NCBI GenBank assembly: GCA_902774815.1
Contig: CACYJV010000002.1
Location: forward strand, 16,373-80,372
Source: an uncultured Prevotellaceae bacterium
Lineage (GTDB): Bacteria > Bacteroidota > Bacteroidia > Bacteroidales > Bacteroidaceae
Length of the DNA: 64,000 nucleotides
Direction: 5' to 3'
Shown in pieces: positions 1 to 21,405 of this stretch. Numbering within the stretch: position 1 is the stretch's first letter; each line of letters begins with the position of its first letter. The notes beneath the pieces were generated by a model. It did not search any database. It was not told the DNA's origin and was given only the letters and a program-made list of their open reading frames with translations. The position numbers and the translations under genes are program-made.

Positions 1-1212
1 AAGCACTTGTTTTTCGGGCACATAGCCGAAGTCTACATGCTGGAAGTCAACATCGCCCAGAACCTCTTTAGCCGCAACATTTTCATCCGTCATCCACTTC
101 CCCTCATCCATCGTCACGGTTCCGTCGTCCACCTCTGGTTCAGCGTCCATCAGTCGGAACACGCGCTCGGCACCCACCGAAGCATTGAGCACCGAGTTAA
201 TCTGCTGCGACACATGCGAGATAGGCTGCGTGAAACTCTTGTTCAACTGCAGAAAAGCGACAATTGTGCCGAGGGTAATTGAAAATTGGTAACCGAAAAA
301 TGAAAAATGCCCAAGAGCCAATGAGGCTCCCACCACAGCGATGAGCACATAGCCCAGCGTGCCGAGATTGCCGTTGACGGGCATCACAATGCTGGCAATG
401 CGGTTAGCATTACAAGCCGACGAGCGCAGCTGTTCGTTGATGCGCTCGAAATCGTCAATAGCCTGCTCTTCGTGACAGAACGTCTTCACCACCTTCTGTC
501 CCGTCATCATTTCCTCGATGAAGCCGTTTACACCCGCCAGTGACTCCTGCTGAGTGCGGAAGTAGCCCCGCGACCACGAACCGAGTTTTGTCGTTGCGAT
601 GGACATCAGCACGGCAATGAAGATACTCACGAAGGTAAGAGGCATGCTGAGCACAATCATCGACGTGAAGGTGACGACGATGGTGATGAGCGAGTTGAAC
701 ACCTGGGCCATACTCGTAGAAATGACTTGCCGCAGCGAATCGACGTCGTTGGTGTAGGTCGACATCATCTCGCCGTGCGAATGGGAGTCGAAGTAGCTCA
801 GCGGCAATCGTTCCATACGCTCAAAGAGTTGCTTGCGCAGTCGCAACTGAGTGCCCTGCGAGACGTAGATCATCAGCCGGTTGTAGGTATAGGAGCAAAT
901 GACGCCCAGCAACAGCACGAGACCGAGTTTGAAGAGGGCTTGCAGCAACGAGGTATACTGGGGGTTGTCGACCTGCGTGAGCGGCACCACGTAGTCGTCG
1001 ATGAGCGTTCGTGTGAAGAGCGTCGATGCCAGCGAGGTGACCGACGATATGGCAATGCACGCCAGCACCGTCAGCACCAGCCACTTGTAGTGCTTCATCA
1101 CCAGCCGAAGCAGTCGAAGCAGAGTCGACCGCTGTTCCTTGCTCATTTTCTGGAAGCCTGCCTGAGCCCGTGGCCCAGGTCCTCCGTTTCTGTTGAAATT
1201 AGGTTGCCGCAT
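1..1212 (-). CDS. ABC exporter, fused permease/ATPase subunit (N-terminal part only; gene continues past window start)
   Basis: Missing from the ORF track because the frame stays open to position 1. My minus-strand translation from ATG 1146 reads MSKEQRSTLLRLLRLVMKHYKWLVLTVLACIAISS... with an MsbA/MdlB-type multi-TM domain. An in-frame ATG at 1212 would add 22 aa, so the start is ambiguous. It lies directly downstream of the paralogous ABC gene 1300..3129, a heterodimer layout. Confidence 0.8.
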   Translation of the reverse strand, partial: MRQPNFNRNGGPGPRAQAGFQKMSKEQRSTLLRLLRLVMKHYKWLVLTVLACIAISSVTSLASTLFTRTLIDDYVVPLTQVDNPQYTSLLQALFKLGLVLLLGVICSYTYNRLMIYVSQGTQLRLRKQLFERMERLPLSYFDSHSHGEMMSTYTNDVDSLRQVISTSMAQVFNSLITIVVTFTSMIVLSMPLTFVSIFIAVLMSIATTKLGSWSRGYFRTQQESLAGVNGFIEEMMTGQKVVKTFCHEEQAIDDFERINEQLRSSACNANRIASIVMPVNGNLGTLGYVLIAVVGASLALGHFSFFGYQFSITLGTIVAFLQLNKSFTQPISHVSQQINSVLNASVGAERVFRLMDAEPEVDDGTVTMDEGKWMTDENVAAKEVLGDVDFQHVDFGYVPEKQVL

Positions 1213-3284: not shown

Positions 3285-6047
3285 ATGAAGCAAAATGCCC
3301 TGACGACATTCATCACGATTGCTCTTCTGCTGTGTTCCCACCTGTCAGCCACAGCCCAGTCCGACGTCACCGACCAATATTTGACGAATGCCGGATTTGA
3401 CAACACTGCAGATTTTGTAAGTTCAATTGTTTATACCTATGCCAACGATGCAAACGCCAACGGCGGCGTGAGCAGCTGCCAGCCTGTCAGCCATTGGACC
3501 GCCGATGCCACTGGCGATGCAAAGGCGGGCGGAGTTTTCGGCTTTGGCTCAGGCTACGGGCTCTCGGGTGGCGGCTACGTGGTGCCCGATGCCGATGCCG
3601 AGGGCAACGACTCGGGCGGCGCACTGGGCTTGGCCACCTGCTGGTCGGCCAGCGTAGGCTACAGTCAGCCCGTCACCCTGCCGCAAGGGCTGATCCGAAT
3701 CTCGTTCATGGTCTACAACGCGGGCACCAACATCATTGCCAACTATTCAAGCACGATGGGCTTCATCGCCGACGATGGCACTGAACACTACGCCGACGTT
3801 GACTTCTACAGGGGCGAATGGACAGAAGCTGTCGTCTATCTGAACCTGCCTTCGGCAACAAGCGGCAAGATTCATCTGGGCTACACCTGTGCCAACGTGG
3901 GCTCAGCGGCTTCGCCAAAGCTGTTTGTCGACTACGTGAAGATTGAGCAGCTGCCTCGTGGATATATGGCCGACGACATGACCAGTCTCATCGACACAGG
4001 CGGCTGGGGAGGTTCTGACAACTACACTGCCGAGGGAGTGACCGCCCGTGAGGTGTTCCAGTGGGGCGCCAGCCTACCCACCGGACGACAGTTGGGGCAG
4101 CAGCTCACGGGACTGCCCGACGGTCTCTACTCGCTGACGATGCTGGTGGGAGTCTCGAGTACGTCGGGACGCGACAACGTCAACAACGTCCTCTCCGAGG
4201 GCAGCACCGCCTACGCCTCGCTTCATGCCAACGACCGCCATCACGGCGTGCCAGCCTACAATCGCGAAGCATTGAGCAAGTTCGACCGCATCACGCTGAA
4301 CGACATCGCCGTGAGCAACGGCACACTCGACATCTGGCTGAACCAAGACCAGACGGGACCTAACTGGCTCACCTTGCAGGTGCAGTCGCTGAAGTGCGTC
4401 AGGCCGATTCCTTCCGAACTGTTCTACACCATCGGCGACGTCAACGAGGACGGGGCGATCACCATTGCCGACGTGACGGCACTCGTCAACGTCATTCTGG
4501 GTAAGAGCTACGTCGGCAAAGAGCATCTTGCCGACATCAACGAGGACGGCAGTATTACCATTGCCGACGTGACGGCACTCGTCAACATCATCTTGGGCAA
4601 GGCCGAAGCCAAGACCATCGACCTGACTTGGAAGTATTCCAAACTGGATGCTATGGTCTATGCCCGCCAGTCAGCTCAGGAGAACGCTGCAGGTGCTGCC
4701 TACATGCTCCGCAAGGCCGTCAGCACGCTGACGGGTGCCGACGTGTCGGCTCTTTACGACATGACCGACGTGGTGACCACGCTGAACATTTCGACCAGCC
4801 TCGCCGATGTGACCAGTGTGAGCATCTTCGCTCTCGACAAAACCGCCATCGCTGGCCCCATGACTGTCAACCGGCGCGGCGACGAACTGCTCTATGCCTA
4901 TTCCGCCGGCAATGCCACAAGCTACGCCAGCAGTCAGGAGAGCGACGTCGTCAGCGTGAGGGCCGACGGTGCTGAAGGCACCTACACAGCTTATCTGCGA
5001 CCTGTCAGCCTGCAGCAAGGTGTGAAGGTGACCATCCAGACTGCCGACGGCCGTTTCTACAGCCAAGACTTCACCGACATAGCCGTCGGTCGGCCGAATG
5101 CTCTGACCTTCACGCAGACCACAGCGCAGAACCTCTGGCTGTCGACCATTCCCGGCAACGTGCCTTTCACGTTCCTCAGCCTGCCCGGCGCACACGACGC
5201 GGCCACAAAGGGAATGGCAGCCAACACCACCGAATGTCAGAGCCTGTCCATTGGCGAACTGCTTGCCTCGGGCGTGCGTTCGCTCGACCTCCGGCCTTAT
5301 GCGACCAGCAGCACGACGGCCGACAACATGTACATCTATCACGGATCGTTGCGAAGCAACGTGCTCTTCAAGACGGCTCTCAGCGACGTCGTCTCGTTCC
5401 TGAGCGCCCATCCTTCGGAAACCGTGTTCATCCTGATGCACGAGGAGGACGACAACAGCCTCGACGCCTGGCGCAGCGCCGTACTTGCCTGCCTGCAGAA
5501 CGTGGCCGACCACATCAAAGTCATCGACAACAACATGACGCTCGACGACTGCCGCGGGAAGATGGTCGTCATCTCGCGCGACAATGTGGCAGCCACCAAC
5601 CTCTGCGGCAAATGCGGCTGGGGCAGCAGCTTCAACCCCAAGACCGTGTTCAGGGGCAGCGACTCCAACGGCACCACCCCGTGGACGCTGTACTATCAGG
5701 ACGAATACGCCTATTCGAGCGACTACGCCTCCTCACGCATTGCCAACATCGAGAAACTGCTCACCGACCACATCGTGCCCAACGAGACGAACCCCAACTT
5801 CATCTACGTGAACACGACGAACGTGGCCTACAGGATCCTCAACTCCGGCAGCTACATCAGGACCACTGCCCCCGTCGTCAACCAAGCCATCTTGGACTCA
5901 CAGGTGTTCACGAACTCCACGGGCCGCTGGGGCATCGTCTCGTCCGACTATATGGCCGACAGCACCTACAAGGGCGACCTGCTGCTGCGAGCCATCGTCA
6001 ACCAAAACTACAAGTACGTCTTCAAGGGCCGCTCGCGTGTGGAGTAG
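3285..6047 (+). CDS. Secreted multidomain protein: unknown N-terminal region, two dockerin-like repeats, C-terminal PI-PLC X-domain-like phosphodiesterase
   Basis: Signal peptide MKQNALTTFITIALLLCSHLSATAQ. Tandem repeats DVNEDGAITIADVTALVNVILGK / DINEDGSITIADVTALVNIILGK at nt 4434-4601. The C-terminal pattern LPGAHDAAT...RSLDLR...IYHG is typical of bacterial PI-PLC-like catalytic domains. Confidence 0.7.
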   Translation: MKQNALTTFITIALLLCSHLSATAQSDVTDQYLTNAGFDNTADFVSSIVYTYANDANANGGVSSCQPVSHWTADATGDAKAGGVFGFGSGYGLSGGGYVVPDADAEGNDSGGALGLATCWSASVGYSQPVTLPQGLIRISFMVYNAGTNIIANYSSTMGFIADDGTEHYADVDFYRGEWTEAVVYLNLPSATSGKIHLGYTCANVGSAASPKLFVDYVKIEQLPRGYMADDMTSLIDTGGWGGSDNYTAEGVTAREVFQWGASLPTGRQLGQQLTGLPDGLYSLTMLVGVSSTSGRDNVNNVLSEGSTAYASLHANDRHHGVPAYNREALSKFDRITLNDIAVSNGTLDIWLNQDQTGPNWLTLQVQSLKCVRPIPSELFYTIGDVNEDGAITIADVTALVNVILGKSYVGKEHLADINEDGSITIADVTALVNIILGKAEAKTIDLTWKYSKLDAMVYARQSAQENAAGAAYMLRKAVSTLTGADVSALYDMTDVVTTLNISTSLADVTSVSIFALDKTAIAGPMTVNRRGDELLYAYSAGNATSYASSQESDVVSVRADGAEGTYTAYLRPVSLQQGVKVTIQTADGRFYSQDFTDIAVGRPNALTFTQTTAQNLWLSTIPGNVPFTFLSLPGAHDAATKGMAANTTECQSLSIGELLASGVRSLDLRPYATSSTTADNMYIYHGSLRSNVLFKTALSDVVSFLSAHPSETVFILMHEEDDNSLDAWRSAVLACLQNVADHIKVIDNNMTLDDCRGKMVVISRDNVAATNLCGKCGWGSSFNPKTVFRGSDSNGTTPWTLYYQDEYAYSSDYASSRIANIEKLLTDHIVPNETNPNFIYVNTTNVAYRILNSGSYIRTTAPVVNQAILDSQVFTNSTGRWGIVSSDYMADSTYKGDLLLRAIVNQNYKYVFKGRSRVE

Positions 6048-6321: not shown

Positions 6322-7407
6322 TTACTTCCTTGCGAAGCGCTCGGCCTGCTGGCGGATGAGTTCCTGATCGTTGAAGTAGTCGATCTGCATGGCGCGGCGC
6401 ACTTCGTCCATCGTCTGGGCTGCAGTTTCGCGGGCGCGCTCGGTGCCTCGGCGCAGGATGTTGTAGACCTCGGGGATGTCCTGCTCGAACACGTGGCGGC
6501 GCTGGCGCATGGGCTCGAGGAACTGGTTGAGCACCTGGTTGAGGAACTTCTTGCACTTCATGTCGCCCAGGCCACCGCGGCGGTAGTGGTCCTTCAGCTC
6601 GTCGAGGTTCTTGTACTCAGGCCAGAACTCGGCAAAGTGGGCATCGGTGGAGAAAGCGTCGAGATAGGTGAAGACGGCATTGCCCTCGACGTGTCCCGGG
6701 TCGTTGAGGTTGATGTGAGTCGGATCGGTATACATGGAGCGAACCTTCTGCCACACCTCGTCGGCGGGGTCGCTGAGGTAGATGCAGTTGCCGAGCGACT
6801 TCGACATCTTCTCCTTGCCGTCGGTACCGGGCAGTCGGCGTGCCGTGAGGTTCTCGGGCAGCAGGATTTCGGGCTCGACAAGCACCTCGCCATAGATGTT
6901 GTTGAAGCGGCGCACGAGCTCACGCGTCACCTCGAGCATGGGCTCCTGGTCTTCGCCTGCGGGCACCGTTGTGGCCTTGAACAGGGTGATGTCGGCAGCC
7001 TGCGACACGGGGTAGCAGAAGAAGCCCAGCGGTATGTTGGCCTCGAAGTTGCGCATCTTGATCTCGGTCTTCACCGTGGGGTTGCGTTGCACGCGGCTGA
7101 CGGTGATGAGGTTCATCAGATAGGTGGTGAGCTCGGCGAGCTCAGGAATCTGACTCTGGATGAAGAGTGTGCACTTCTCGGGATCGAGGCCGGCAGCAAG
7201 GTAGTCGAGTGCCACCTCGATGATGTTCTGACGAATCTTCTCGGGGTTGTCGGCATTGTCGGTCAGCGCCTGCACGTCGGCCATAAACACGAACATCTTT
7301 TCGTAGTCGCCGGCGTCCTGCAATTCGACGCGACGGCGTAGCGAGCCTACGTAGTGGCCCAGGTGGAGACGACCTGTTGGGCGGTCGCCTGTGAGGATTA
7401 CTTTCAT
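6322..7407 (-). CDS. trpS: Tryptophan--tRNA ligase
   Basis: 361 aa. Class I aaRS HIGH-type motif ([11 protein letters not shown]) and KMSKS motif. ADVQALTDN and SQAADITLF are TrpS-like. Confidence 0.8.
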
Positions 7408-7496
7408 TTACGATTTATGGATTTACGATTTACGAATTTACGATTATACGATTTACGATTATACGATTTACGATTATACGATTATACGATTTACGG
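7408..7496. repeat. 8-nt microsatellite-like tract (T/A)TACGATT x about 11, abutting the trpS start codon
   Basis: ttacgatttatggatttacgatttacgaatttacgattatacgatttacgattatacgatttacgattatacgattatacgatttacgg. The sequence begins the nucleotide after ATG 7407. Confidence 0.85.
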
Positions 7497-7527
7497 ATGT
7501 CACAGTTGTTTCAACCACGAAGGGTAA

Positions 7528-7566
7528 TCATCAACTATAAACTATCAACTATAAACTATCAACTAC
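7528..7566. repeat. 8-nt tandem tract AACTAT(C/A)A x about 4.5
   Basis: tcatcaactataaactatcaactataaactatcaactac. It overlaps the stop codon of 7563..8324. Confidence 0.8.
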
Positions 7567-8324
7567 TCCTTCTCCATCTCAACACCGTTGTAGATGATGC
7601 ACTGTCGCTTGGGGTCGACCTTGCGGTGCTCGACCTCCTCGCTGCCCTCGAACTTGCAGTAGAGACGCTTCTTCTTGTAGAAGAAGGTACCGCGACTAAT
7701 CTGGCCGCCCGACTCCTCGGAGATCTTGTTACCACGAATGATGATGACCACATAGCCGTCGTCGAGATCGGTGCGCCAAGTGCCCTGAAGCCAGTCGGGA
7801 ACGGGCTCGGCTCCTTCGACGAGGAAGGGCTCGTAGTCCTTGACGATGGCCTCGTCGCCAAACTCGGTGAGCGACTCGTTGATGCCCTGCTCGATCATGG
7901 CCTGCTTGTAGCTGCGCTCACCGAGGCAGTTTCGCACGATGAACACGGAAACGATGAACAACAGGAGGAAGCCGATGAGACAACCGCGCATGCAGGAGCG
8001 CATGTTCATTGGGTTGTTCTGACGGTCGGCGGCAGACATGGGGCGACGACCGCCCTGACGCATCCCGAAGATGTCGGCGGGTCGGTCGGCCTGCGGAGTT
8101 CGTTCGGTTGATGCCGATGCGGCAGGCATCGTGTCTGTCTCGTCAAGGGCCTCAGCAGCAGGAGCAGACGGGGCCTCGGTCTCCTCTGGGGAAGGCTCAA
8201 GGGCGTCGCTGACCTGATACATGAAAGGCGTGCCGCAACGGGGGCACACGCAGGCTACCTCGTTGATGCCTTCATCGACGGGTGTATCGAACTTAAAGCG
8301 GCATTTGGGACACTTTACGATCAT
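7563..8324 (-). CDS. Zinc-ribbon membrane protein (unknown function)
   Basis: N-terminal CPKC...CPRC zinc ribbon, an acidic/Pro-rich linker, one TM helix (CLIGFLLLFIVSVFIV) and a roughly 120-aa C-terminal domain. Confidence 0.6.
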   Translation of the reverse strand: MIVKCPKCRFKFDTPVDEGINEVACVCPRCGTPFMYQVSDALEPSPEETEAPSAPAAEALDETDTMPAASASTERTPQADRPADIFGMRQGGRRPMSAADRQNNPMNMRSCMRGCLIGFLLLFIVSVFIVRNCLGERSYKQAMIEQGINESLTEFGDEAIVKDYEPFLVEGAEPVPDWLQGTWRTDLDDGYVVIIIRGNKISEESGGQISRGTFFYKKKRLYCKFEGSEEVEHRKVDPKRQCIIYNGVEMEKE

Positions 8325-8341
8325 CTATGGTTGTTTTAATT

Positions 8342-8430
8342 GTTGGCTGTTGGCCGTTAGCCGTTGGCTGTTGGCTGTTGGCACTGGGACAAATCAATTT
8401 TCAATTCTCAGTTTTCAATTTTCAATTTTG
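8342..8430. repeat. Two adjacent microsatellite-like tracts (GTTGGCT x about 6; CAATTTT(C) x about 4)
   Basis: gttggctgttggccgttagccgttggctgttggctgttggc (8342-8382) and caattttcaattctcagttttcaattttcaattttg (8395-8430). Both lie in the leader of 7563..8324. Confidence 0.8.
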
Positions 8431-8454
8431 CGAAGCAACCATGTTGCTTGCAAT

Positions 8455-9075
8455 TTATTCGAATCTAACAACTGCCTTACGCGTGACGCGCCAGTCGGCA
8501 CCTTCGCGGGCAACAGCACCTTCTTCTTCGGTGATGATGTGGCGGGGCTGCTGCGACGTTGAGCCGATGATGCGGCACACGGGCTTCACAAAGGCCGAGA
8601 CGCTGATGGTGGCCGTAGCAATGGCATCGGGCGTGTCGAGGAGGATGAACGTGCCGTTCTGTCCGTCGGTCGTCGTCAGCTGATAGATGCTCTTGCCAAT
8701 CTGCTCGTGCAAGGATGCCTGTTGGAAGAGTCCGTCGGCCGAAGGAGCGGGCAGATAGAATACGGTGGGCTCCACACGATGGGGCTCGGGACGAGCGGCA
8801 GGCTGGGGTGTCGTCGCCAACTGGACGTCGGCCGACATGTTGATGCCCACGGGCTGAACTGAAGTAGCAGACTCCTGTGTCTGCCCGTCGACAGGATGCT
8901 CAGCTGCGACCGAGTCAGCGTTGTTGCGCTGGGAGGCTACGGTTTCCTCTAACTCAGTTATGCGGGCCTCCATGCGCCGGCACTTGCGTTCCAGATGCTC
9001 AAGGCGCTGAAAGAGTTCCTGCAGGTCCTGCTTAGGCAGGTTCTCGTCGTCTCGTTTATTTCCAAATAGGGCCAT
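8455..9075 (-). CDS. Coiled-coil protein (last tightly linked gene of the candidate operon)
   Basis: 206 aa. N-terminal heptad-like QDLQELFQRLEHLERKCRRMEARITELEETV, a low-complexity linker, then a globular C-terminus. Its start lies 16 nt after the stop of the 1157-aa gene. Confidence 0.65.
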   Translation of the reverse strand: MALFGNKRDDENLPKQDLQELFQRLEHLERKCRRMEARITELEETVASQRNNADSVAAEHPVDGQTQESATSVQPVGINMSADVQLATTPQPAARPEPHRVEPTVFYLPAPSADGLFQQASLHEQIGKSIYQLTTTDGQNGTFILLDTPDAIATATISVSAFVKPVCRIIGSTSQQPRHIITEEEGAVAREGADWRVTRKAVVRFE

Positions 9076-9091
9076 TATTAGTTGAGAGTGT

Positions 9092-12000
9092 TTAGAGATT
9101 CTCTATGAGGTTGTTGCGGATGCTTCCGATGATGGGATAGAAGAACACCGTGTCCTCGATGGGGTCGCTGCCATTCTTCTCGGAAAGGTCCTTGGTGGCA
9201 AACTGCCAGCCGTTCAGCAGATGGTGCTTCAGGTCCTTGTTCACCAACTCGCGGAACTTCTGCAGCGACCTGTTGTCGACCAGGAAACGGTCGGCCACAT
9301 GGATGTCGTCGCAGAGTTGACTGAAGAAGTCGTTGTACTGGCGTACGGCCTCTACTATCTGGTCGAGCACTTCTCCGCGCTCCATATCGTCGTAGTTGAG
9401 CGTCTGCTTCTCGATCATCGAGTAGTTGGACTTCACGTCGGAATCGAAGCCATCGAGCATGTTGTTCAGCTCGTCGACACTCTTACAGCCTGTGGCATCG
9501 CGCACCTGCATCAAGGCACCTCGGCAGGTGATCTGCTTGGGTTCCTTGCGCTCCATGACGACCGAGAAGCCGTCGGCATCGTAGTGCTCGCCGTAGACGC
9601 GCTCGAAGACGGCCTGTGAGATGAGGTCGAGGTCGCGCTTGGTGCCCACAATGTCGAGAACCTTCGAACCTGTGCCGCTGAACATCACGGAGCGGGGTTT
9701 GTCCAGATGGCGCTGCTTCATCATGCGGGCCACATAATATAATAATGTGACATAGAAGTAAATGAAGACTATCTTGCGCTGCGGATCTTCGTTGAGCCGC
9801 TGGTTGTAGCTGAACACATCGTTGCCGCCGACCACCTTGTTGTTCTGCACGGAGAAGAGGAAGGCGTTGATGTCCTCGCTCTTACGCTTCGAGGTGATGT
9901 CGTCGAGGATGCCGCTCAGTTCGCCGTACTTCTCGTCGTCGCCATCGAAGAGGCGCTTGAAGTAGTCGACGTACTTCACGACCATCGGGTTGCTGTCGCC
10001 CTGAGGCACCTCGGAGAAGCCGTCGCCAAACAGCACGTTGGCGGCAAAGCGGAACGAGGTGAGGATTGTGGGCTGCTTGGCGCCCGACTCAAAGACCACT
10101 ACGTCGCTGGAGCCGCCGCCGATGTCGATGCTGGCCACATTGGATGCCGAGCCTCTGAACTGGCTGGACGACTTGTAGAAGTAGTAAGGGGCCACCGACT
10201 CAGGCATCTGGATGAGGTTGGTGTCGGTCACGGGGATGCCGAAGACCTCGGTGAACGTCTTGGTCCACATCTCGCCCATCTTGCGGACGTTGCCGACCTT
10301 CATGGCCAGCGGATAGAACCAGACGAGGCGCGTCTTCGTCAGGTCGCCATTCTCGAGCAGAACCTTTGCCCGCATGAGCAGCGCCAGCTCGGTGAGATAA
10401 GACTTCACGCGCTTCGATGTGGCCATCTCGGTGGACCACTTCAGATTGGGCACGATGCGGTTGCCGTAGCCGATACTCTCCTTTTCGTAGATGAACGGGA
10501 TGTTGGCATCGGCCAAAGCCACGATGGTGTCGACATTCTCGGCATCGAGGCTTTCGGGCTCGCTGATGACGGTGCGCTGGGGGAATCCATAGTCCTGACC
10601 AATGGTCTTGGGCAGGAACTCTTGCTTCAGGATGACGTCGTAGAGCGGCTGACCACCGTTATAGAGTGTTGCCAGCAGGCGTTGCGCTGCTGCTGAGTCG
10701 AGGCAGAGCGGGCCCGGCATGTCGTTTTCCTTCATGAACTCGAGGTGGGTGTTCGTCGTACCGAAGTCGACCGAGAAGGTGAAGGCGTCGTGACCGGGAG
10801 CATAGGTGGCCCAACGGGGACAAATCATGCCCTCGACAGCACGATTGCCGCGATCGTCGGTCAGCGTCACGCCGATGTAGTCGAAGTCGTTGGTAAGCTT
10901 ATAGTACTGCGAACCTACGTGCTTCTGGGCCTTCACGCTGCGCTGACGCATCATCACTTCGTCGCCTGTGAGCTGCCGCTGGTAGCCGTTCTGGTAGAAG
11001 GACAGCGACAACTTGTACTCCATCAGCATGCCGAGACCGCGATCGACCAACTGTACGGAATACTGATTGGCCAGCGGTGTGCGTACGAAGGGGAAAATGC
11101 TCAGGGCAAAGGGTACCGTGAGGAAGTGGCCGCGATTATTGGCATAGTCGTAGCGCAGGTCATTGGTCGTAGCGGCAACATAGTTGCGCTCGAGCGTGAT
11201 GAATTTGCCCTGTTTCTGCACGGGAATGCGCAGAATGGCGCGAACGGTCTCGGTGGATCCATTCTGCGTGTGGATGAGTTCGAACTTGGGCTTTCCGGCA
11301 ATGGTGCCCCAGAGGTCAGCCACGTTGAAATATTTGAAGAACATGGGCTTCAGCGGCAGCACGAAGTCGCAGCTGTCGGTGTCGCGCGAACCCTTTGCCA
11401 GATTGCCGTTGAAGAAGCAATCACGGTCGAGTGTATAGTCGAGTTTGATAAGCGTTGGCTGGAAGAAATCATCGTCGGTCAGCCAGGGGTACTCGTGACT
11501 GGTGGCGGGAAGCACTCGCTTCTCGGGCGGCAGCTGATAGTCCTGCGGAGTGATGACGGTAGCATCGGTCCAAGGCGAGGTGATGTACTTGAACGGATCG
11601 GTCTGCGGTGCGTTCAGGTGGTTCTGCAACACCAGCGGCAGGACGTCGCCACAATCCTGACGCGAAGGAACAATCATGAAGTCACTTTCCTGAATGGCCT
11701 TCTGCACGTCCTCGGCCCGGGCCTGATAGAACGGCACGCCGAGCGCTTGTATGCCTTCGTCCATCTTCGCGAACGTCGTGTCGAGGAACGTCTTTGCGCG
11801 CTCAACGCTCTCGTAGTCGTAGGCGGCGGGATTGCCCACTTCCTTCAGGATCTCGTTCTGCAGCATCGGCGGCAGCAGGGGCAGCGTGCCAATGAGGTAG
11901 CTGTTTACTTCGCTGCAGCACTTCTTCAGCTCGGGATAAGCCGTAAACAAGGCGAAGATGTACTTCACGAACTTCTGATCACGCATATGGAGAGGACGCC

Positions 12001-12565
12001 AGAGGTCGAACAGGTTCACGTTCTGCTCGACGGGAATGGGGAAGCGGCCCGGCTGCGCATTGGGCGTAGCCATAAAGAGAGTGACGGGCGACGTCGAGCC
12101 AATCACCTGATTGCCGTAGACGAGGAAATAGAGGCGGTCCATACGGTCGAAGTTGAAGGCCTCCTTGTCCTGATCGAGAAACATCTCGATGGTCTCACCG
12201 AGCAGCTTGTGTTGGGGCGAATCCTTCAGCATCTGGAGCTGCGTGTCGCGGTTCCACTCGACGATGCGTAGCTGGTTGCGATGTTCGGCATAGTTGAAGA
12301 ACAGCTGAGCCACGTCGAGGGCATTGGAAACAAGCTTCTCGTCCATTGCCTCACCCTGCAGTCGGTCGTGCATAGCCAGACGCTTGAAGGCGTTCTTGAC
12401 GAGGTCCATCTGTGCAAACGGCGAGGGAATGGCCGTACGGGGCTGCTGAGAGAGTCCGCCATTAGGGTCGTCGATCATCTCGATTTCGTCGGCATTGTAC
12501 TGACTCGTCAAAGGAATCCATCCCTCACCCGTTGTCTTGTTGTTGTAGGATAGTATCTTGCTCAT
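9092..12565 (-). CDS. Giant protein: about 590-aa unknown N-terminal region fused to an actin/Hsp70-fold (ASKHA) ATPase-like domain
   Basis: Phosphate-1-like VDFGTTNT (nt 10748-10768), phosphate-2-like DIGGGSSD (nt 10103-10126) and adenosine-like MFSGTGSK (nt 9662-9682), in the canonical order and spacing for the ASKHA superfamily. Confidence 0.8.
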   Translation of the reverse strand: MSKILSYNNKTTGEGWIPLTSQYNADEIEMIDDPNGGLSQQPRTAIPSPFAQMDLVKNAFKRLAMHDRLQGEAMDEKLVSNALDVAQLFFNYAEHRNQLRIVEWNRDTQLQMLKDSPQHKLLGETIEMFLDQDKEAFNFDRMDRLYFLVYGNQVIGSTSPVTLFMATPNAQPGRFPIPVEQNVNLFDLWRPLHMRDQKFVKYIFALFTAYPELKKCCSEVNSYLIGTLPLLPPMLQNEILKEVGNPAAYDYESVERAKTFLDTTFAKMDEGIQALGVPFYQARAEDVQKAIQESDFMIVPSRQDCGDVLPLVLQNHLNAPQTDPFKYITSPWTDATVITPQDYQLPPEKRVLPATSHEYPWLTDDDFFQPTLIKLDYTLDRDCFFNGNLAKGSRDTDSCDFVLPLKPMFFKYFNVADLWGTIAGKPKFELIHTQNGSTETVRAILRIPVQKQGKFITLERNYVAATTNDLRYDYANNRGHFLTVPFALSIFPFVRTPLANQYSVQLVDRGLGMLMEYKLSLSFYQNGYQRQLTGDEVMMRQRSVKAQKHVGSQYYKLTNDFDYIGVTLTDDRGNRAVEGMICPRWATYAPGHDAFTFSVDFGTTNTHLEFMKENDMPGPLCLDSAAAQRLLATLYNGGQPLYDVILKQEFLPKTIGQDYGFPQRTVISEPESLDAENVDTIVALADANIPFIYEKESIGYGNRIVPNLKWSTEMATSKRVKSYLTELALLMRAKVLLENGDLTKTRLVWFYPLAMKVGNVRKMGEMWTKTFTEVFGIPVTDTNLIQMPESVAPYYFYKSSSQFRGSASNVASIDIGGGSSDVVVFESGAKQPTILTSFRFAANVLFGDGFSEVPQGDSNPMVVKYVDYFKRLFDGDDEKYGELSGILDDITSKRKSEDINAFLFSVQNNKVVGGNDVFSYNQRLNEDPQRKIVFIYFYVTLLYYVARMMKQRHLDKPRSVMFSGTGSKVLDIVGTKRDLDLISQAVFERVYGEHYDADGFSVVMERKEPKQITCRGALMQVRDATGCKSVDELNNMLDGFDSDVKSNYSMIEKQTLNYDDMERGEVLDQIVEAVRQYNDFFSQLCDDIHVADRFLVDNRSLQKFRELVNKDLKHHLLNGWQFATKDLSEKNGSDPIEDTVFFYPIIGSIRNNLIENL

Positions 12566-12595: not shown

Positions 12596-14140
12596 CTACA
12601 CCACGCCCACATACTTTTCGTCAAGCAGTTTGTCGAGCGTCTCGTCAAGCAGATCGAGCAACTTCAGCGCTGTGCGATCGGTGCCGTACTTCTGTGTCTT
12701 CATGGCCTGCTGCGAAGCTTTGTTTAGCGAAGAGAGCACACTCTTGTAGTCGATGGTCGACTTCAGGAATCCCGTCTTCGGCGCAATGTCGGTCAGACAG
12801 TCGCTGAGCTTGGTGGTATCGAGGTTGAAGGGCACGAAGCTGCGCTGGTTCTGACGTAGTTCACGAAGCCACTGGCGATAGCTGACGAAGAAGTCGCTGG
12901 TCAGCGTGTTGAAGAACGACGTCGAGAGGAACGCGTTCGAAATCTCGGGCTTGTCTTGCGTATAGCCGCGCCCGATGTCCTGACGTAGCTGATTGGTGAT
13001 GTACATATAGGCCAGATGGAACTTTGCCATCTGACGATTGACGAGTGCCCGCGTGCTGACGCCAAAGTCTTTCAGCGAGAGCGTCTGCTTGTCCTGAGCC
13101 AGACCGAACTCCTTGTAGATGGGGTTCACGGCATTGCCGTCCTGTGTCTGCAGCTGCTCGTCGGGGATGGCGAGGAAGTCGAGCACGGAAAGGGCTCCGA
13201 CAAACTCAACAAGGTGAGCGTCGTTGCGCTGACCGTTGCCGCCCGGGTCGTTGAAGTAGGGGTTTGAGGGCACCTGATCGCCCAGATAGTAGCAGGCGTT
13301 AATCTTCGACAACGGCAGGTCGACGCCATTCTGGCGCAGGCCGGTGAGGTTGTCGTGATAATAAAACAAGGCCGACTTGGTCTTCGAGATGAAGTCGCCA
13401 CGCGAGATAGGGCTGTTGTCGTCCTGCTGCACGTTGAAGTAGGGCAATACGGTCAGTGCACCGATACGGGCATCGCGCAGGTCGCCACGATTGTTGATCT
13501 GTGCATTGCGGGCAGCATTGCGAATGTTCTTCACGATAATGGGGTAGCCTGCAGCACCTGTTCCACCGAAGATGCTCGACACGACGAAGACGCGGTCGGA
13601 CTTCTGGAACACGTTGGAGAACTGGCGGAATTCCTCAGAGTCCTTGAACTGGTTAAGGGCAACACTGCCGATGTTGGGCGAACCGACGAAGCCGATGTCC
13701 ATCTTCGTGTTCAGCTGATAGTCGCTGAACATCATGGAACACAGGGCCTGATTACCCGTATCAAGGGTTGAGTAGTTGATGAAGTCCTGAAACTTCTTCG
13801 ACTCAATGGCACCCATGTTGAAGAGAAACGTATCGCTGAGTTGTGAGCCGTTGGGCAGAATGTCGGCAAGGCTGCTGATCTTCACCGAGAAGAAGCCCTT
13901 CTTCACATCCACCTGCTCACCGTAGAGTTGTGTCCGAATCTGTTTATACCAGCGCATGAGGTTGTCCGTGCGCTTCAGGTCTTCATTGGCCTTGTGGGGA
14001 TCAACGACGATAGGAATAATCTCGAGCGGCATGGGTTGCCCCTGTTCATCAACGGGATGAACACCTGCAGCACACTGCATGATGAGTGGCCGCATCACAC
14101 GCGAGCCTGTTCCGCCTACAAGAAATAGAAATAATCGCAT
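12596..14140 (-). CDS. Tubulin/FtsZ-like GTPase candidate
   Basis: 514 aa. N-terminal LFLVGGTGSRV (T1-loop-like, nt 14102-14116) and SSIFGGTGAAGYP (nt 13547-13567), which resembles the tubulin signature GGGTG(S/T)G. No Walker A lysine. Confidence 0.6.
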   Translation of the reverse strand: MRLFLFLVGGTGSRVMRPLIMQCAAGVHPVDEQGQPMPLEIIPIVVDPHKANEDLKRTDNLMRWYKQIRTQLYGEQVDVKKGFFSVKISSLADILPNGSQLSDTFLFNMGAIESKKFQDFINYSTLDTGNQALCSMMFSDYQLNTKMDIGFVGSPNIGSVALNQFKDSEEFRQFSNVFQKSDRVFVVSSIFGGTGAAGYPIIVKNIRNAARNAQINNRGDLRDARIGALTVLPYFNVQQDDNSPISRGDFISKTKSALFYYHDNLTGLRQNGVDLPLSKINACYYLGDQVPSNPYFNDPGGNGQRNDAHLVEFVGALSVLDFLAIPDEQLQTQDGNAVNPIYKEFGLAQDKQTLSLKDFGVSTRALVNRQMAKFHLAYMYITNQLRQDIGRGYTQDKPEISNAFLSTSFFNTLTSDFFVSYRQWLRELRQNQRSFVPFNLDTTKLSDCLTDIAPKTGFLKSTIDYKSVLSSLNKASQQAMKTQKYGTDRTALKLLDLLDETLDKLLDEKYVGVV

Positions 14141-14189: not shown

Positions 14190-14633
14190 CTACTCAGGAA
14201 TCGGCGTATGACGGCAGTTTGACGACCACCAGCGCATAGCGAACGAAGCCACCACGAAGAGTACGGCCTCGACGGCGAGGTCGACGACGCAGAATCCACC
14301 GAGCTGGGCGCTGAAGTCATAGCCCTCGGCCGTGAAGGCATTATTGCAGATGACGAATGAGGTAACTGGGGCAGCAACGCTGGCCACACCGAGTACGATA
14401 AGCCAGTGGAACCACCGCGAGAAGCTCACGGAGTTGACGACGTAATAATAGATAGCGGCCAAGCCCCAGGCGATGAGCACCGTCACCAGTGCTACGACGA
14501 AGTAGAGGTTTTGGTTGTACATCTCGTTCGAGAATTGGCGTTCGAAGTAGAGTGCCTCGAAAATCTTCGTGTTCAACACAAGGAACAGCAGCGAAATCAC
14601 TGCACCTGCAATCAGTAGAATTGAATTCTTCAT
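14190..14633 (-). CDS. Small integral membrane protein (about 4 TM helices)
   Basis: 147 aa with four hydrophobic segments. Gaps of 29 and 49 nt to the flanking operon genes. Confidence 0.7.
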   Translation of the reverse strand: MKNSILLIAGAVISLLFLVLNTKIFEALYFERQFSNEMYNQNLYFVVALVTVLIAWGLAAIYYYVVNSVSFSRWFHWLIVLGVASVAAPVTSFVICNNAFTAEGYDFSAQLGGFCVVDLAVEAVLFVVASFAMRWWSSNCRHTPIPE

Positions 14634-14662: not shown

Positions 14663-16165
14663 TTATGGTTTCAACTCAAGCTCAAGCTCGAAATAGTAGG
14701 GGTCGCCCTTCGAGTGCTTGCGGTAACTGTCGTAGATGCCCTGCAGGAGATACTTCAGACCGAAGGTGGTCTGGGCAAACGACGACGAAGTGAGGTTGGT
14801 GTCGTCGTCGCTCGACGATGCCTCGACCCATGCGGGCAGGTGGTTCATGAGCTTGATCTCCACTTCCTGACGATGCTTAATACCCTCGCTTTCGAGGACA
14901 AACAGGTGGGTTGCCTTTCCGAGACGCTTGCGTTCGGCAGGCGAAACTTCCTTCTGAGCGATGGGGCGAATCTCCTTGATCACGACGGGATCATCGCTCT
15001 CAACACGATAGTTCTCCACATTGGTCAGGTATTGCTCGTCGATGAGCATGCCGCTCAAGTCGACAGCCAGCGCCAGACGCAAGTCACCTGCATCACGATC
15101 AACCTCGACATTCTCGATGTCGCGAATCTGGTCGCCCTGCCCATGAACTGGGCGGAAGCGACCGCGTATCTGCTCGTTGTCGAGCAGCAGCGAGTAGTAA
15201 GGTTTATAGACACCGTCGGTCCCGAAAAGGTACATATCCTCATAGCCGCGCAGGTCGCTGAAACGGCTGAAGGGTACGTAGCTTTCGTCGCGAGTCAGCC
15301 GGGCCATGTTGCGGTTGGACCCTACAACGACGATGTAGTAGGGACGACGGCCGTTGTACTGCTGACCGCTGGTGGAGTTGTATACATAATAGGCACCATT
15401 GTAGGAGCCCTGCATCTTTACGACAAGCAGTCCCTTCTCCTTAACCTGACTCTTGAAAACGGCATTCGTCATACCCTGCGCCTCAGAGAAAACCTTCTGC
15501 GGGTTGACGCCGACCATTTGCTTGGTAGAGTAGATCATATCCGTCACGAGGATGGAGAGTTCGTCCTCACCCGTCTTGTCGAGCAGTTGCTTGAAGATGG
15601 CTTCGAAGTCGGTCGACGAGGCATCGCCGATGCCCTTGGTGGACTCGAAGATATTGGGATCGCTGATGAACTGCGAATAACCTTTCGGGTAGGCATTGAT
15701 TTCGGAGTTGACCACATAGATGCGGTTGTCGTCGCCAGTACCAGGCAGCTTGTTGAGCATGCCCACAATGGCGGCCTTGAACGAACCGTCACCACCTGCA
15801 GCATCGTAAGGAACCATCGAACCGGAGCGCTCCAAGTAGAAGTTTACGGCAAGCGTACGCCGGCCGGCCTGAATGTCAATCTTCTTAGGCGGTCGGCGAC
15901 CTTCAAAGAAGTCTTCGATGTACTCCTTCACCCCGTCGACATCGAGCTGGCCGTCTTTATAGAAGTCTGTGAAATGTGCCTTCTGGCCGTCGAGGTACTC
16001 AACGATCTGCTCCCACTCTTGTGCGTCAATCACTTCATCGCGATCGGCCACATCGAGCAACAGCCGATTCAGTTCTTTCTTCTCGCCGCCACCACAAGCA
16101 GTGATCAGCACCATTCCTATCAGGGCCAAAATAGTTGCTTTCAGCCTCATCGTTTTCATCTTCAT
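14663..16165 (-). CDS. vWA-domain lipoprotein
   Basis: Lipoprotein signal with lipobox LITAC (Cys24). vWA-like core NFYLERSGSM (MIDAS-like E-R-S-G-S, nt 15818-15832) ... GDASSTDF ... LSILVTDMIYS. Confidence 0.7.
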   Translation of the reverse strand: MKMKTMRLKATILALIGMVLITACGGGEKKELNRLLLDVADRDEVIDAQEWEQIVEYLDGQKAHFTDFYKDGQLDVDGVKEYIEDFFEGRRPPKKIDIQAGRRTLAVNFYLERSGSMVPYDAAGGDGSFKAAIVGMLNKLPGTGDDNRIYVVNSEINAYPKGYSQFISDPNIFESTKGIGDASSTDFEAIFKQLLDKTGEDELSILVTDMIYSTKQMVGVNPQKVFSEAQGMTNAVFKSQVKEKGLLVVKMQGSYNGAYYVYNSTSGQQYNGRRPYYIVVVGSNRNMARLTRDESYVPFSRFSDLRGYEDMYLFGTDGVYKPYYSLLLDNEQIRGRFRPVHGQGDQIRDIENVEVDRDAGDLRLALAVDLSGMLIDEQYLTNVENYRVESDDPVVIKEIRPIAQKEVSPAERKRLGKATHLFVLESEGIKHRQEVEIKLMNHLPAWVEASSSDDDTNLTSSSFAQTTFGLKYLLQGIYDSYRKHSKGDPYYFELELELKP

Positions 16166-16259: not shown

Positions 16260-16267
16260 CAAAATTA
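16260..16267 (-). promoter_or_regulatory. Candidate -7 box TAATTTTG upstream of the vWA/tubulin-like/ASKHA operon
   Basis: Plus-strand caaaatta. It lies about 95 nt upstream of ATG 16165. No clear -33 element. Confidence 0.35.
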
Positions 16268-19398: not shown

Positions 19399-21405
19399 AT
19401 GAAGCAAATTATACACCATCTCCTATTTCTGTTCATGGCCATGTTCTGCATGGTCACAACAACGAGGGCGCAGTGGACACGACTCACCAATCTGCCCACC
19501 GTCTACATCGATACTTATGGCGGTGCGCCCATTACGAGTAAGACTAACTACATCTACTCCACGCTGCGATATGTCGACGAACAGGACCACGTGACGGTCT
19601 ACGATTCGGTGCAGATACGCGGCCGAGGCAACTCAACATGGGGACTTGCCAAGAAGCCTTACAAACTGAAGTTCAACCAGAAGGAACGCTTCCTCGGACC
19701 ACAGCGTGCCAACGCAAAGAAGTGGACGCTTCTGGCCAATGCTGCCGACAAGACGCTCATCCGCAACGCAGTCACTGCGGCCATCGGCGAGTTCACGTCG
19801 CTGGTCTTCAACCCTGCTTATAAGTTTGTCGACCTCGTGCTTAACGGAACCCATCTGGGCAACTATCAAATCAGCGACCACATAGACGTTCGTAAACGCC
19901 GAGTCAACATCGAAGAACAAGACCTGCCCCTAGCACCTGAAAGCGATATTACGGGTGGCTATCTGCTCGAGGTCGATGGATTCAAGGAGGGCAACTGCTT
20001 CACCACCAGTCGCTACAGCGTGCCTGTACGCATCCACTATCCTGAAGACGAGGACATTTCACCGACGCAAAACACATATATTCGCAACTACATTGCCGAC
20101 TTCGAGCGCTCGTTGCAGGCTACCTACTTCGATGATCCTGAACGTGGCTATCGGCAGTATGTCGACTCGACTTCGCTCATCGACTGGTTTCTCGTCACAG
20201 AGATCAGTGCCAACCTCGACGGTTACTATAGTACCTATTTCTATAAGGATCAAGCCGATCCCCTACTTTACTGGGGACCTGTGTGGGATGCCGACATCGC
20301 CTATAACAACGATCAGCGTGTGACAGGCACATCGGAAAAGTTGATGACTGATTACGGATTCGGACAAACCAAGCAATGGGTCAACCGCATGTGGCAAGAC
20401 ACGTGGTTCGCTAAGAAAGTCTATACGCGTTACTCCGAGTTGCTTGACAGGGGACTCGTCGATTATCTCAATGCGAAGATCGACAGCCTTACCCAACTGC
20501 TGCAGCGGTCACAGGAACTCAACTATGAGCGGTGGGGCATCAACCGCAGAATGTACCACGAGGTAGTACTCTACTCCAGTTACGATCAGTACATCGACAA
20601 CCTTCGCGGCTTCATCTCATCACATTGCCAGTGGCTTCTCACTGCATTTGCCAACCGAAAGCCCATCGAACCTACACCTGAATTTGAGCCACGTCAAGTT
20701 TATTACCGCATTCTGAATGCCAATACCAATAAGGCAATCAGCGCTAGTGGCAATCTGGTCAGCCAACAGACCAATACTGAAGACAACATCGATGAAGAAT
20801 GGTGGATCAAACGCGTGGGCGACCACTTCATGATGCTCAATCGCAATTCGCTGCTCGCACTGAACGACCCCACTGAGGGGGCCGTTGGACCTTCAACCAA
20901 CGTTGGCACACCCATTGATGTGGCACAGGAGGACTCACTTGATGAGCGCCAGCTTTGGGACATCATCCCTCAAGGCACCGAAGGCTACTACAACCTGCTG
21001 AATGTCTATTCGCAGCACATCGCCAATCTGCGTGGCGGCTCTGGTGCCGACGGTACCGAGATCATCAGCTACACCAACGACGAGCGCAATTCGTCCAGCA
21101 AGAACCGACTCTGGTACTTCGTCGCCACCCGCAATGCCATTCCCGAAGACCTCGCAGGCATCGACCCGCCCGAGCCTGATGACTACGCACTGGCCTATAA
21201 TCCTACTTCAGAGGAACTACACTTCGGTGCCGAAGATCGTTCGCAGCTGCAGCGATTCACAGCTCGCGTCTTCAACGCCAACGGACAACTCGTTGGCACC
21301 TTCCGTGCTGACGAACGTTTCTCAATGGCCTCCTTGCCACATGGTCTCTACATCGTCAATTGGCAGTGCAGCCAGCAGCAGCGCTCCGCTAAGTTCATGA
21401 GGTAA
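19399..21405 (+). CDS. CotH-family (kinase-like) secreted protein with ricin-B-like lectin region and T9SS C-terminal domain
   Basis: Signal peptide. CotH-like IRGRGNSTWGLAKKPYKLKF and KKWTLLANAADKTLIRN. QxW-like repeats EEWWI / RQLWDI / RLWYF. C-terminal LPHGLYIVNW. Confidence 0.7.
   Translation: MKQIIHHLLFLFMAMFCMVTTTRAQWTRLTNLPTVYIDTYGGAPITSKTNYIYSTLRYVDEQDHVTVYDSVQIRGRGNSTWGLAKKPYKLKFNQKERFLGPQRANAKKWTLLANAADKTLIRNAVTAAIGEFTSLVFNPAYKFVDLVLNGTHLGNYQISDHIDVRKRRVNIEEQDLPLAPESDITGGYLLEVDGFKEGNCFTTSRYSVPVRIHYPEDEDISPTQNTYIRNYIADFERSLQATYFDDPERGYRQYVDSTSLIDWFLVTEISANLDGYYSTYFYKDQADPLLYWGPVWDADIAYNNDQRVTGTSEKLMTDYGFGQTKQWVNRMWQDTWFAKKVYTRYSELLDRGLVDYLNAKIDSLTQLLQRSQELNYERWGINRRMYHEVVLYSSYDQYIDNLRGFISSHCQWLLTAFANRKPIEPTPEFEPRQVYYRILNANTNKAISASGNLVSQQTNTEDNIDEEWWIKRVGDHFMMLNRNSLLALNDPTEGAVGPSTNVGTPIDVAQEDSLDERQLWDIIPQGTEGYYNLLNVYSQHIANLRGGSGADGTEIISYTNDERNSSSKNRLWYFVATRNAIPEDLAGIDPPEPDDYALAYNPTSEELHFGAEDRSQLQRFTARVFNANGQLVGTFRADERFSMASLPHGLYIVNWQCSQQQRSAKFMR

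Follow-up and report, generated by a model that had tools for sequence, protein, structure and literature searches.

Proteins of the tubulin/FtsZ fold organise cell division, DNA segregation and cell shape. A gene for a divergent protein of this kind, here called TubL, was analysed in a stretch of 64,000 nucleotides from an uncultured Prevotellaceae bacterium (GenBank assembly GCA_902774815.1, contig CACYJV010000002.1, positions 16,373 to 80,372 of the forward strand); this stretch is referred to as the window, and positions are counted from its first nucleotide. The TubL gene is the single open reading frame of its interval and lies on the minus strand, with its ATG at 14140 and its stop codon at 12596-12598, while the plus-strand translation of 12596-14140 is full of stops and holds no open reading frame. 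It is the third gene of an operon that also encodes a lipoprotein, a small membrane protein, a giant protein with actin-fold motifs, a coiled-coil protein and a zinc-ribbon protein (Table 1). The original prediction, made from the DNA sequence alone, had described TubL as a divergent tubulin/FtsZ-like protein, an identification that is supported by the Pfam matches of its family, by profile hits to PDB sequences and by the 50 best structural matches of its model.

Table 1. Features of TubL, its operon and its upstream region, with positions in the window and residues of TubL
Feature	Residues	Position	Strand	Basis or conserved residues
TubL, 514-amino-acid (aa) divergent FtsZ/tubulin-superfamily protein (predicted)		12596..14140	-	Open reading frame, Pfam, AlphaFold2, Foldseek
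N-terminal GTPase-like domain (S1-S6, T1-T6, H7)	1-323	13172..14140	-	Model secondary structure, invariant residues
S1	2-8			
T1 and H1	9-24			
T1 loop GGTGS	9-13	14102..14116	-	G9, G10, G12, R14 invariant
Short insert	25-39			
S2, followed by D47	40-46			
D47, T2-equivalent acidic residue after S2	47	14000..14002	-	Invariant, 94/94
H2	53-73			
Family-specific insertion between H2 and S3/T3	74-145	13706..13921	-	Model
T3-like loop GFVGSPNIG	150-158	13667..13693	-	G150, F151, G153, G158 invariant; aligns with FtsZ GAGANPEIG/GAGANPEVG
H3	to 177			
S4	183-189			
T4 and H4	192-207			
T4 signature GGTGAAG	192-198	13547..13567	-	G192, G193, T194, G195, G198 invariant
S5, followed by PYF	225-231			
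T5-like PYF	233-235	13436..13444	-	P233, Y234 invariant; F235 at least 90%
H5	247-264			
S6, followed by D288	282-286			
T6-like loop	287-309			G300, Q304, N306, A308, H309
H7	310-323			E312 invariant
QxNxAHxxE, end of T6 and start of H7	304-312	13205..13231	-	Q304, N306, A308, H309 at least 90%; E312 invariant
C-terminal, mostly alpha-helical region	324-514	12599..13171	-	Model; E344, W424/E427 conserved
Lipoprotein, 500 aa, first operon gene		14663..16165	-	Lipobox LITAC, Cys24; ExSGSM...TD...TD, with ERSGSM at 15815-15832
Membrane protein, 147 aa, second operon gene		14190..14633	-	Hydropathy scan, four predicted transmembrane segments
Giant putative ASKHA protein, 1157 aa, fourth operon gene		9092..12565	-	Actin/HSP70-fold-like C-terminal half at about 9506-10783
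Coiled-coil protein, 206 aa, fifth operon gene		8455..9075	-	N-terminal coiled coil; weak coiled-coil Pfam hits
Zinc-ribbon protein, 253 aa, sixth gene (Prevotella lineage)		7563..8324	-	Zinc ribbon at the N terminus; single transmembrane segment
Candidate Bacteroides-type -7 promoter element TAATTTTG		16260..16267	-	Pattern match only; 102 nt upstream of lipoprotein ATG

Anatomy and conservation of TubL

Residues 8-15 of TubL read VGGTGSRV and residues 184-200 read VFVVSSIFGGTGAAGYP, and the corresponding minus-strand intervals in Table 1 translate to GGTGS and GGTGAAG, respectively. Both motifs had been proposed as counterparts of nucleotide-binding loops, the first of T1 and the second of T4, and both assignments were borne out. 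The T1 motif, the counterpart of the superfamily's glycine-rich GxGxxG-type loop, follows the strand formed by residues 2-8, and all 94 relatives keep its G9, G10 and G12 unchanged; the T4 motif, directly preceded by VFVVSSIF, is aligned with GGGTGTG of FtsZ and with GGTGS of CetZ. Read as F-GGTGAAG (residues 191-198), it departs from the signature GGGTG(S/T)G in the replacement of the first glycine by phenylalanine and of the serine or threonine by alanine. The reported lack of a P-loop lysine was likewise upheld, the Walker A motif [AG]x4GK[ST] being absent from TubL and from all five of its operon partners. The spacing between T1 and T4 is 183 aa, a length from which insertions had been expected; in the structural model these fall at residues 25-39 and 74-145, the insertions between the two loops amounting to about 60-90 aa in total. 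The longer of them had low confidence in a model built from a shallow alignment and high confidence in one built from a deep alignment.

A profile search of a library of 1.84 billion proteins placed 1732 cluster representatives (clusters at 50% identity) in the TubL family at E<=1e-3, of which 475 also reached E<=1e-30; of the 150 matches listed, almost all that are full-length measure 460-530 aa. The family is well represented in Prevotella, in Muribaculaceae and among other Bacteroidales of gut or rumen. The window derives from a Prevotellaceae genome of rumen or gut type; the closest genomic match, from the uncultured Prevotellaceae metagenome-assembled genomes RUG12665 and RUG12193, is 94% identical to TubL, and identity is 60-94% in Prevotella and relatives, 46-50% in Muribaculaceae and 35% in Paludibacter. 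Where a close homologue bears a source name, this reads 'hypothetical protein', and precomputed Pfam domains are lacking throughout; family members from Prevotella are labelled in the same way or are unnamed. Relatives are already automatically tagged 'tubulin-like', whereas TubL of Prevotella is unannotated.

Conservation was assessed in an alignment of 94 members that are 31-55% identical to TubL (mean column identity 33%). It contains 24 invariant residues, namely G9, G10, G12, R14, G26, D47, Y65, G150, F151, G153, G158, S189, G192, G193, T194, G195, G198, P200, P233, Y234, K253, Y261, G300 and E312, all of which fall within residues 9-312. As the T1 and T4 motifs are invariant in this alignment, the two loops originally flagged are the most conserved parts of a large family, and by this measure of conservation the motifs of TubL are far beyond a chance resemblance.

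The secondary-structure boundaries in Table 1 were taken from the AlphaFold2 model. For T2, a HMMER alignment to the FtsZ motif NTDxQAL had pointed to residues 121-133 (LDTGNQAL); this candidate was rejected because it is not conserved across the family and is helical in the model, and D47, which is invariant, was assigned instead. The PYF motif after S5 presumably corresponds to PFxFEG of FtsZ. The QxNxAHxxE motif is kept in the cyanobacterial homologues described below. After F322 conservation collapses. The model continues with long helices at residues 361-388, 408-429, 465-481 and 490-509, in a region where E344, W424 and E427 are the only strongly conserved positions; the resulting WxxE motif persists in the homologue from Gloeothece. 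Acidic residues conserved outside the T7 position are D321 (80%), E344 (88%) and E427 (97%). No match of TubL to Pfam FtsZ_C or Tubulin_C was found. Together with a score of 15.4 against a cut-off of 295 for the FtsZ model TIGR00065 and a helical C-terminal third, this agrees with the earlier statement that an FtsZ-type C-terminal tail is missing. As judged from the alignment and the model, TubL has an intact nucleotide-binding half of the tubulin fold, and neither a canonical T7 loop nor a C-terminal domain of the FtsZ/tubulin type can be recognised.

Relationship of TubL to FtsZ and tubulins

When the 94 relatives were scanned singly, 82 matched Pfam Tubulin_2 (PF13809) at E<=0.01, with a best E of 3.3e-10, and 79 matched Tubulin (PF00091), Tubulin_2 being the best Pfam match for most family members. 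In one relative, residues 7-204 align to positions 4-143 of the 190-position Tubulin profile and, in another, residues 7-240 align to positions 2-206 of Tubulin_2, so that T1 and T4 are both in register. Many relatives already have precomputed PF13809 or PF00091 hits, an example being Palpr_2047 of Paludibacter propionicigenes. A further link was provided by a 511-aa TubL homologue encoded on plasmid Cy782204 of Gloeothece verrucosa PCC 7822, which is named 'tubulin-like doman-containing protein' at NCBI. It matches the TubL family profile over 428 columns (hhalign probability 99.95%, E 4e-38) and scores 40.8 bits against Tubulin_2, above the gathering cut-off of 27.

Profile searches of PDB sequences gave the same result. 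With a profile of close homologues the best hits were all FtsZ and, with a profile of the diverse family, CetZ proteins took the first three places, a few unrelated proteins appearing at E >0.9. In these alignments GFVGSPNIG of TubL falls on the FtsZ T3 loop GAGANPEIG, and SSIFGGTGAAGYP falls on the T4 loop. The prominence of FtsZ among these hits would also be expected if TubL were a divisome paralogue of the cell-division FtsZ. This is extremely improbable, given the low TIGR00065 score, the lack of FtsZ_C, T7 loop and C-terminal peptide, and the position of the gene outside a division and cell-wall synthesis cluster, in an operon context unrelated to division.

Structural comparison was based on an AlphaFold2 model built from 94 diverse homologues, with a predicted local distance difference test score (pLDDT) of 94.2 and a predicted TM-score of 0.94. 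The 50 best Foldseek matches in the PDB were all FtsZ, CetZ, TubZ, PhuZ, BtubA or Asgard and eukaryotic tubulins, at probabilities of 0.91-1.0; CetZ 3zid ranked first and TubZ 2xka gave the longest alignment (397 columns). In a library of viral structures, phage tubulins were the top matches. Neither a lack of tubulin hits nor a match to another Rossmann-like family, the outcomes that the original prediction had named as speaking against it, was found among these 50. A first model, built from 42 close homologues, had reached a pLDDT of 75, with less than 50 in the T2-T3 region, and its Foldseek list included some short-chain dehydrogenase folds; it was superseded by the 94-homologue model.

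These dehydrogenase matches bear on the possibility that TubL is another Rossmann-like enzyme, such as a short-chain dehydrogenase, whose glycine-rich loops resemble those of tubulins by chance. They were few, had probabilities of 0.3-0.66 and came from the pLDDT-75 model, and the Foldseek E-values of TubL are only about 1e-3. However, none of the top 50 PDB matches of the pLDDT-94 model lies outside the FtsZ/tubulin superfamily, family members pass the Pfam Tubulin_2 model, the T3, T4 and T5 motifs align in register, and searches of Pfam and NCBIfam gave no dehydrogenase family, the only NCBIfam matches of TubL being sub-threshold ones to tubulin/FtsZ models. An enzyme of this kind is therefore highly improbable. 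By the homology of its GTPase domain, as seen in profiles and model, TubL is an extremely divergent FtsZ/tubulin superfamily member.

The operon and its distribution

The gene neighbourhood of TubL was surveyed in 80 loci of Bacteroidales (Prevotella and relatives, Muribaculaceae). A shared, co-directional order was observed, in which TubL is preceded by the lipoprotein (78/80 loci) and the four-segment membrane protein (79/80) and followed by a protein of about 1150 aa (79/80) and the coiled-coil protein (72/80), with median intergenic gaps of 18-55 nt. The zinc-ribbon/transmembrane gene of the Prevotella lineage was matched in 40 of the loci, and the genes flanking the operon differ between Prevotella species. 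The four-gene core is also present in Paludibacter propionicigenes, and in six (L083-L087 and L090) of 12 IMG/VR contigs that encode a TubL relative; on the remaining contigs one or two core matches are missing or the contig ends early. TubL is thus obligately linked genetically to actin-fold and membrane or exported proteins.

The giant protein encoded downstream of TubL carries three invariant motifs, DFGTTN (residues 600-605), DIGGGxxD (residues 814-821, DIGGGSSD at 10103-10126 in the window) and SGTGS (residues 963-967), so that the phosphate-1 (DxGxT), phosphate-2 (DxGGGT/S) and adenosine (GG/GTG) motif types are all represented. In the window the 1157-aa protein gives only weak profile matches. 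An orthologue (L091) scores 30.3 bits against Ppx-GppA, above the cut-off of 27, and cyanobacterial orthologues match FtsA (4e-5) and MreB (1e-3), with weaker matches of orthologues to EutA and Hydantoinase_A. On these motifs and profile scores, the giant protein is assigned to the ASKHA (actin/HSP70/sugar-kinase) superfamily. Its first 590 residues or so gave no match to a known family; they include a strongly conserved motif at residues 42-60, PRTAIPSPFAQMDLVKNAF (12386-12442), which takes the forms SIPSPWARPL and SVPTMWARPL in cyanobacteria. A weak match to SrfB (PF07520) was followed into the literature and nothing was gained from it.

In the lipoprotein, the lipobox cysteine and the pattern ExSGSM...TD...(S/T)D are invariant among orthologues, and the pattern resembles the metal ion-dependent adhesion site (MIDAS) of vWA domains. 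Neither Pfam, searched with three sets of orthologues, nor PDB profiles gave a vWA match. An hhalign comparison with the integrin alpha-M I-domain placed all three MIDAS elements in register at a probability of 4% and E 0.011, which is not significant. The resemblance to vWA was retained as a motif-level hint only; the lipoprotein may contain a very divergent or novel MIDAS-bearing domain. The -7 consensus behind the candidate promoter upstream of the lipoprotein gene is one that we take to be of the Bacteroides type, and the promoter is putative.

Three loci depart from or extend the common arrangement. One of the 80 loci (L047, 11543-21542) is alone in having no giant gene downstream of TubL, opposite-strand genes being found there instead; it may be a natural case of TubL without its partner, or a rearrangement. 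The most distant TubL relative found (L094, 4986-6788, plus strand; 600 aa, 23% identity) has a Tubulin_2 match at residues 7-240 and an upstream lipoprotein with the degenerate motif YLEQTGR. In the roughly 4.4 kb that follow it (6789-11170), the expected place of a giant gene, only three short open reading frames of 118-157 aa occur, two of them on the opposite strand; stop-codon recoding, decay of the gene or faulty assembly might account for this. In Paludibacter propionicigenes (L081, 14814-21407) the core is followed by co-directional genes for proteins of 387, 503, 249 and 610 aa and then by genes for a retropepsin-like aspartic protease and for a protein in which a zinc finger of the DnaJ type (CXXCXGXG) occurs. 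In FtsZl1 operons, Makarova and Koonin have described GTPases to which DnaJ-like zinc fingers are fused (PMC2875224).

A module of four-segment membrane protein, tubulin-like protein, giant actin-fold protein and coiled-coil proteins was also found on mobilizable plasmids of two cyanobacteria, Gloeothece verrucosa PCC 7822 (L095, NC_014503.1 39251-47534) and Picosynechococcus sp. PCC 7003 (L096, NZ_CP016476.1). For Gloeothece, homology of the giant protein (hhalign 97.8%, E 7e-13) and of the lipoprotein (97.5%, E 5.6e-12) was detected, the latter being divergently transcribed and carrying DGSGSM (L095, 6881-8284, minus strand). At the Picosynechococcus locus TubL and the giant protein are present, together with a weak, local match to the lipoprotein. 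At both loci the small membrane proteins match in size, position and hydrophobic segments only. Weaker tblastn matches to a TubL-like protein lie on plasmids from three other strains, Picosynechococcus PCC 8807, Picosynechococcus PCC 73109 and [Synechococcus] sp. NIES-970. The plasmid-borne module implies an apparent horizontal spread across phyla. In four near-identical IMG/VR loci the module is adjacent to an integrase; in locus L083 (UViG_2051223001_000039) a tyrosine integrase (phrog_1, E 1.2e-24; 1669-2865, plus strand) lies directly upstream of the lipoprotein gene, so that the operon may stand at the edge of an integrative element in some lineages. The copies of Bacteroidales are chromosomal, as on the 3.69-Mb chromosome of Paludibacter and a 2.69-Mb contig of Prevotella koreensis.

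Given the plasmid homologues, and with TubZ and PhuZ among the structural matches, TubL could be thought a TubZ/PhuZ-like tubulin that segregates the DNA of a plasmid or mobile element. Such a role is very unlikely. The gene is chromosomal in Bacteroidales, the operon encodes no evident DNA-binding adaptor of the TubR type, TubL is partnered instead by a lipoprotein, by membrane proteins and by a giant ASKHA protein, and a tblastn search of 50,697 phage records gave no match.

The same mobility is a point in favour of another reading, in which the operon is an anti-phage or anti-plasmid conflict system of the type proposed by Kaur, Burroughs, Iyer and Aravind (2020), where the NTP-dependent assembly of tubulin-like and HSP70/actin-fold proteins sets the threshold of an effector response (PMC7159879). 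Tubulin-domain proteins together with vWA proteins and, separately, HSP70 proteins occur in these GTPase-centric systems (PMC7159879), and the mobilizable plasmids, the integrase directly upstream in L083 and the variable flanking genes among Prevotella species would all fit. [quoted passage not shown] The operon proteins gave no defence-system match in PADLOC and a single marginal PHROGs match, of the 253-aa protein to a zinc ribbon (E 0.00097), and no variable effector domain was recognised among them. In addition, the identity of TubL drops stepwise with taxonomic distance, which looks largely vertical. A conflict system is, on this evidence, distinctly unlikely.

Elsewhere in the window, a 920-aa protein with a type I dockerin (Pfam E 9e-9) is encoded at 3285-6047 on the plus strand of this Prevotellaceae genome; clostridial cellulosomes are the best-known source of dockerins. 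The surroundings are rich in genes for glycan degradation and surface functions, at 19399-21405 (plus strand) and at 30686-35293, 53437-56088 and 56411-59779 (minus strand), among them those for a CotH kinase that also has a ricin-type lectin domain, for a 1535-aa rhamnogalacturonan lyase of family 11, for an arabinofuranosidase and for a 1122-aa GH20 hexosaminidase. This gene content is typical of a plant-fibre-degrading Prevotella.

Proposed role and comparison with known systems

Taken together, TubL is probably a cytoplasmic, divergent FtsZ/tubulin GTPase that belongs to a compact branch near FtsZl1/Tubulin_2 and acts as the nucleotide-dependent subunit of a membrane-associated machine. 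In the mechanism envisaged, TubL would bind GTP and, depending on the nucleotide, self-associate or switch in concert with the actin-fold ATPase on the cytoplasmic side of the inner membrane. The four-segment membrane protein would anchor TubL and couple it to the periplasmic lipoprotein, and the result would be an envelope-associated machine akin to the membrane remodelling proposed for FtsZl1 operons (PMC2875224). Any turnover of GTP would have to depend on a partner or on a non-canonical activating residue, for which E344 and E427 could be candidates.

Several observations weigh against this reading. Scored by itself, TubL stays below the cut-offs of both Pfam families, with 20.7 bits for Tubulin_2 (E 2.8e-4, cut-off 27) and 20.4 bits for Tubulin (E 6.8e-4, cut-off 33), both matches being centred on T4 and in register. 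An hhalign comparison of the TubL family with E. coli FtsZ, in which a profile was set against a single sequence (verified against the PDB), was not significant (probability 0.8%) and covered T3-T4 only. The Foldseek TM-scores of 0.22-0.43, at E values of about 1e-3 and identities of 9-14%, are low, indicating that only the N-terminal domain of TubL superposes. The T7 'synergy' loop, which follows H7 and supplies the catalytic acidic residue, reads NxDxxD in FtsZ and NxDxxE in alpha-tubulin. Its acidic residue, suggested by the original prediction as something to look for, is not conserved in canonical form: a search after H7 for NxDxxD/E found residues 324-340 to be variable and gapped, with no column of more than 46% D/E. 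With no conserved T7 motif, polymerisation-coupled GTP hydrolysis is not supported, and any hydrolysis by TubL must use another residue or a partner. The combination of plasmids and integrase would suit an accessory or mobile function no less than a housekeeping role. Finally, the nucleotide binding, assembly, protein contacts and biological role of TubL are predictions from sequence and model.

The missing T7 loop makes a serious, if on balance unlikely, alternative of a non-polymerising switch or pseudo-GTPase, in which TubL, monomeric or dimeric, would regulate the actin-fold ATPase or load it and would form no cytomotive filaments. Besides the lack of a conserved T7, the collapse of conservation after residue 322 and a C-terminal domain that is helical rather than FtsZ-like are in keeping with such a switch. 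The strict conservation of all nucleotide-contact loops, on the other hand, argues for real nucleotide chemistry, and the conserved E344 and E427 could replace the activating residue. A bolder form of the GTPase reading would make TubL and the giant actin-fold protein a new two-NTPase machine (GTPase and ATPase), shared by gut Bacteroidales and cyanobacterial plasmids, anchored by the four-segment membrane protein to the exported MIDAS-like lipoprotein and assembled or activated without T7, that is, a new cytoskeletal or envelope apparatus and not a variant of FtsZ/FtsA or FtsZl1; this proposal is tentative and may well prove too strong.

To our knowledge, the T7 loop and the C-terminal domain couple polymerisation to hydrolysis in all tubulins that have been studied, and for FtsZl1/Tubulin_2, the most divergent branch, no experimental study was found in the literature searched. 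The TubL locus represents a large uncharacterised family of dominant gut bacteria, the study of which could show the tubulin fold working without the canonical activation mechanism and could uncover a new envelope or conflict system in these organisms.

With FtsZ, TubL shares the Rossmann-like fold of the GTPase domain, with the T3 (GxxGxPxxG) and T4 (GGTGxG) motifs in register, and the pairing with an actin-fold partner recalls FtsZ-FtsA, as an analogy only. It differs in lacking the FtsZ_C domain, the T7 loop NxDxxD and the C-terminal tail, in the roughly 90 residues added between T1 and T4, and in its TIGR00065 score (15.4 bits, cut-off 295.2). CetZ, TubZ, PhuZ, BtubA/B and the tubulins are structural matches at probabilities of 0.9-1.0, but TM-scores with TubL are 0.2-0.45 and TubL has no domain of the Tubulin_C type. 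Moreover, unlike the TubZ, PhuZ and BtubA/B systems, the TubL operon contains no TubR, BtubC protein or phage-nucleus genes.

The closest likeness is to FtsZl1/Tubulin_2. Both have a GGTG-form T1, a GGTG-type T4 and insertions between the two, both have a helical C-terminal region in place of a recognisable T7 and FtsZ-type C-terminal domain, and both are encoded in operons with exported or membrane proteins. FtsZl1 proteins were described as having no T6-T7 counterparts and as being encoded in membrane-associated operons, and a role in membrane remodelling was proposed without experiment (PMC2875224). They are, however, about 900-1130 aa in size and carry an extended coiled coil in their centre (Huta_2051, 1051 aa; BACCAC_02057, 913 aa; Cyan8802_4288, 1097 aa; PMC2875224), whereas TubL family members have 470-520 aa, typically about 490, and no coiled coil, a helical region of about 190 residues and a separate coiled-coil protein two genes downstream. 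Of the hallmark FtsZl1 neighbours, vWA, P-loop GTPase, OmpA-like and Ser/Thr kinase proteins (PMC2875224), none was detected in Pfam-recognisable form in the TubL operon. Conversely, the actin-fold partner of about 1100 aa is not among the associated families in PMC2875224, where no Prevotella protein is listed. As the sole Bacteroides FtsZl1 in the supplementary tables of Makarova and Koonin has 913 aa and a different neighbourhood (PMC2875224), the TubL family is not simply their Bacteroidetes representative. A search of the literature for the TubL operon, for experiments on PF13809/FtsZl1 and for the RefSeq names yielded only two comparative-genomics papers and a passing mention of the Pfam family. 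No description of the compact architecture, or of the invariant association with a giant actin-fold protein in two phyla, was found in the literature searched; the tubulin-like kind itself is known.

The DO-GTPase/GAP1-N2 systems, finally, resemble the TubL operon in their combination of membrane and vWA-like proteins with a tubulin-domain protein that is extended C-terminally by alpha helices (PMC7159879). An HSP70/actin-fold NTPase occurs there in a related theme, the tubulin and HSP70 themes being separate and described from Firmicutes and Actinobacteria (PMC7159879). The TubL operon differs in having no Walker A motif in its six proteins, GAP1 itself not having been searched for, and in the pairing of the two NTPase folds, the tubulin-like and actin-fold genes being adjacent in 79 of the 80 loci.

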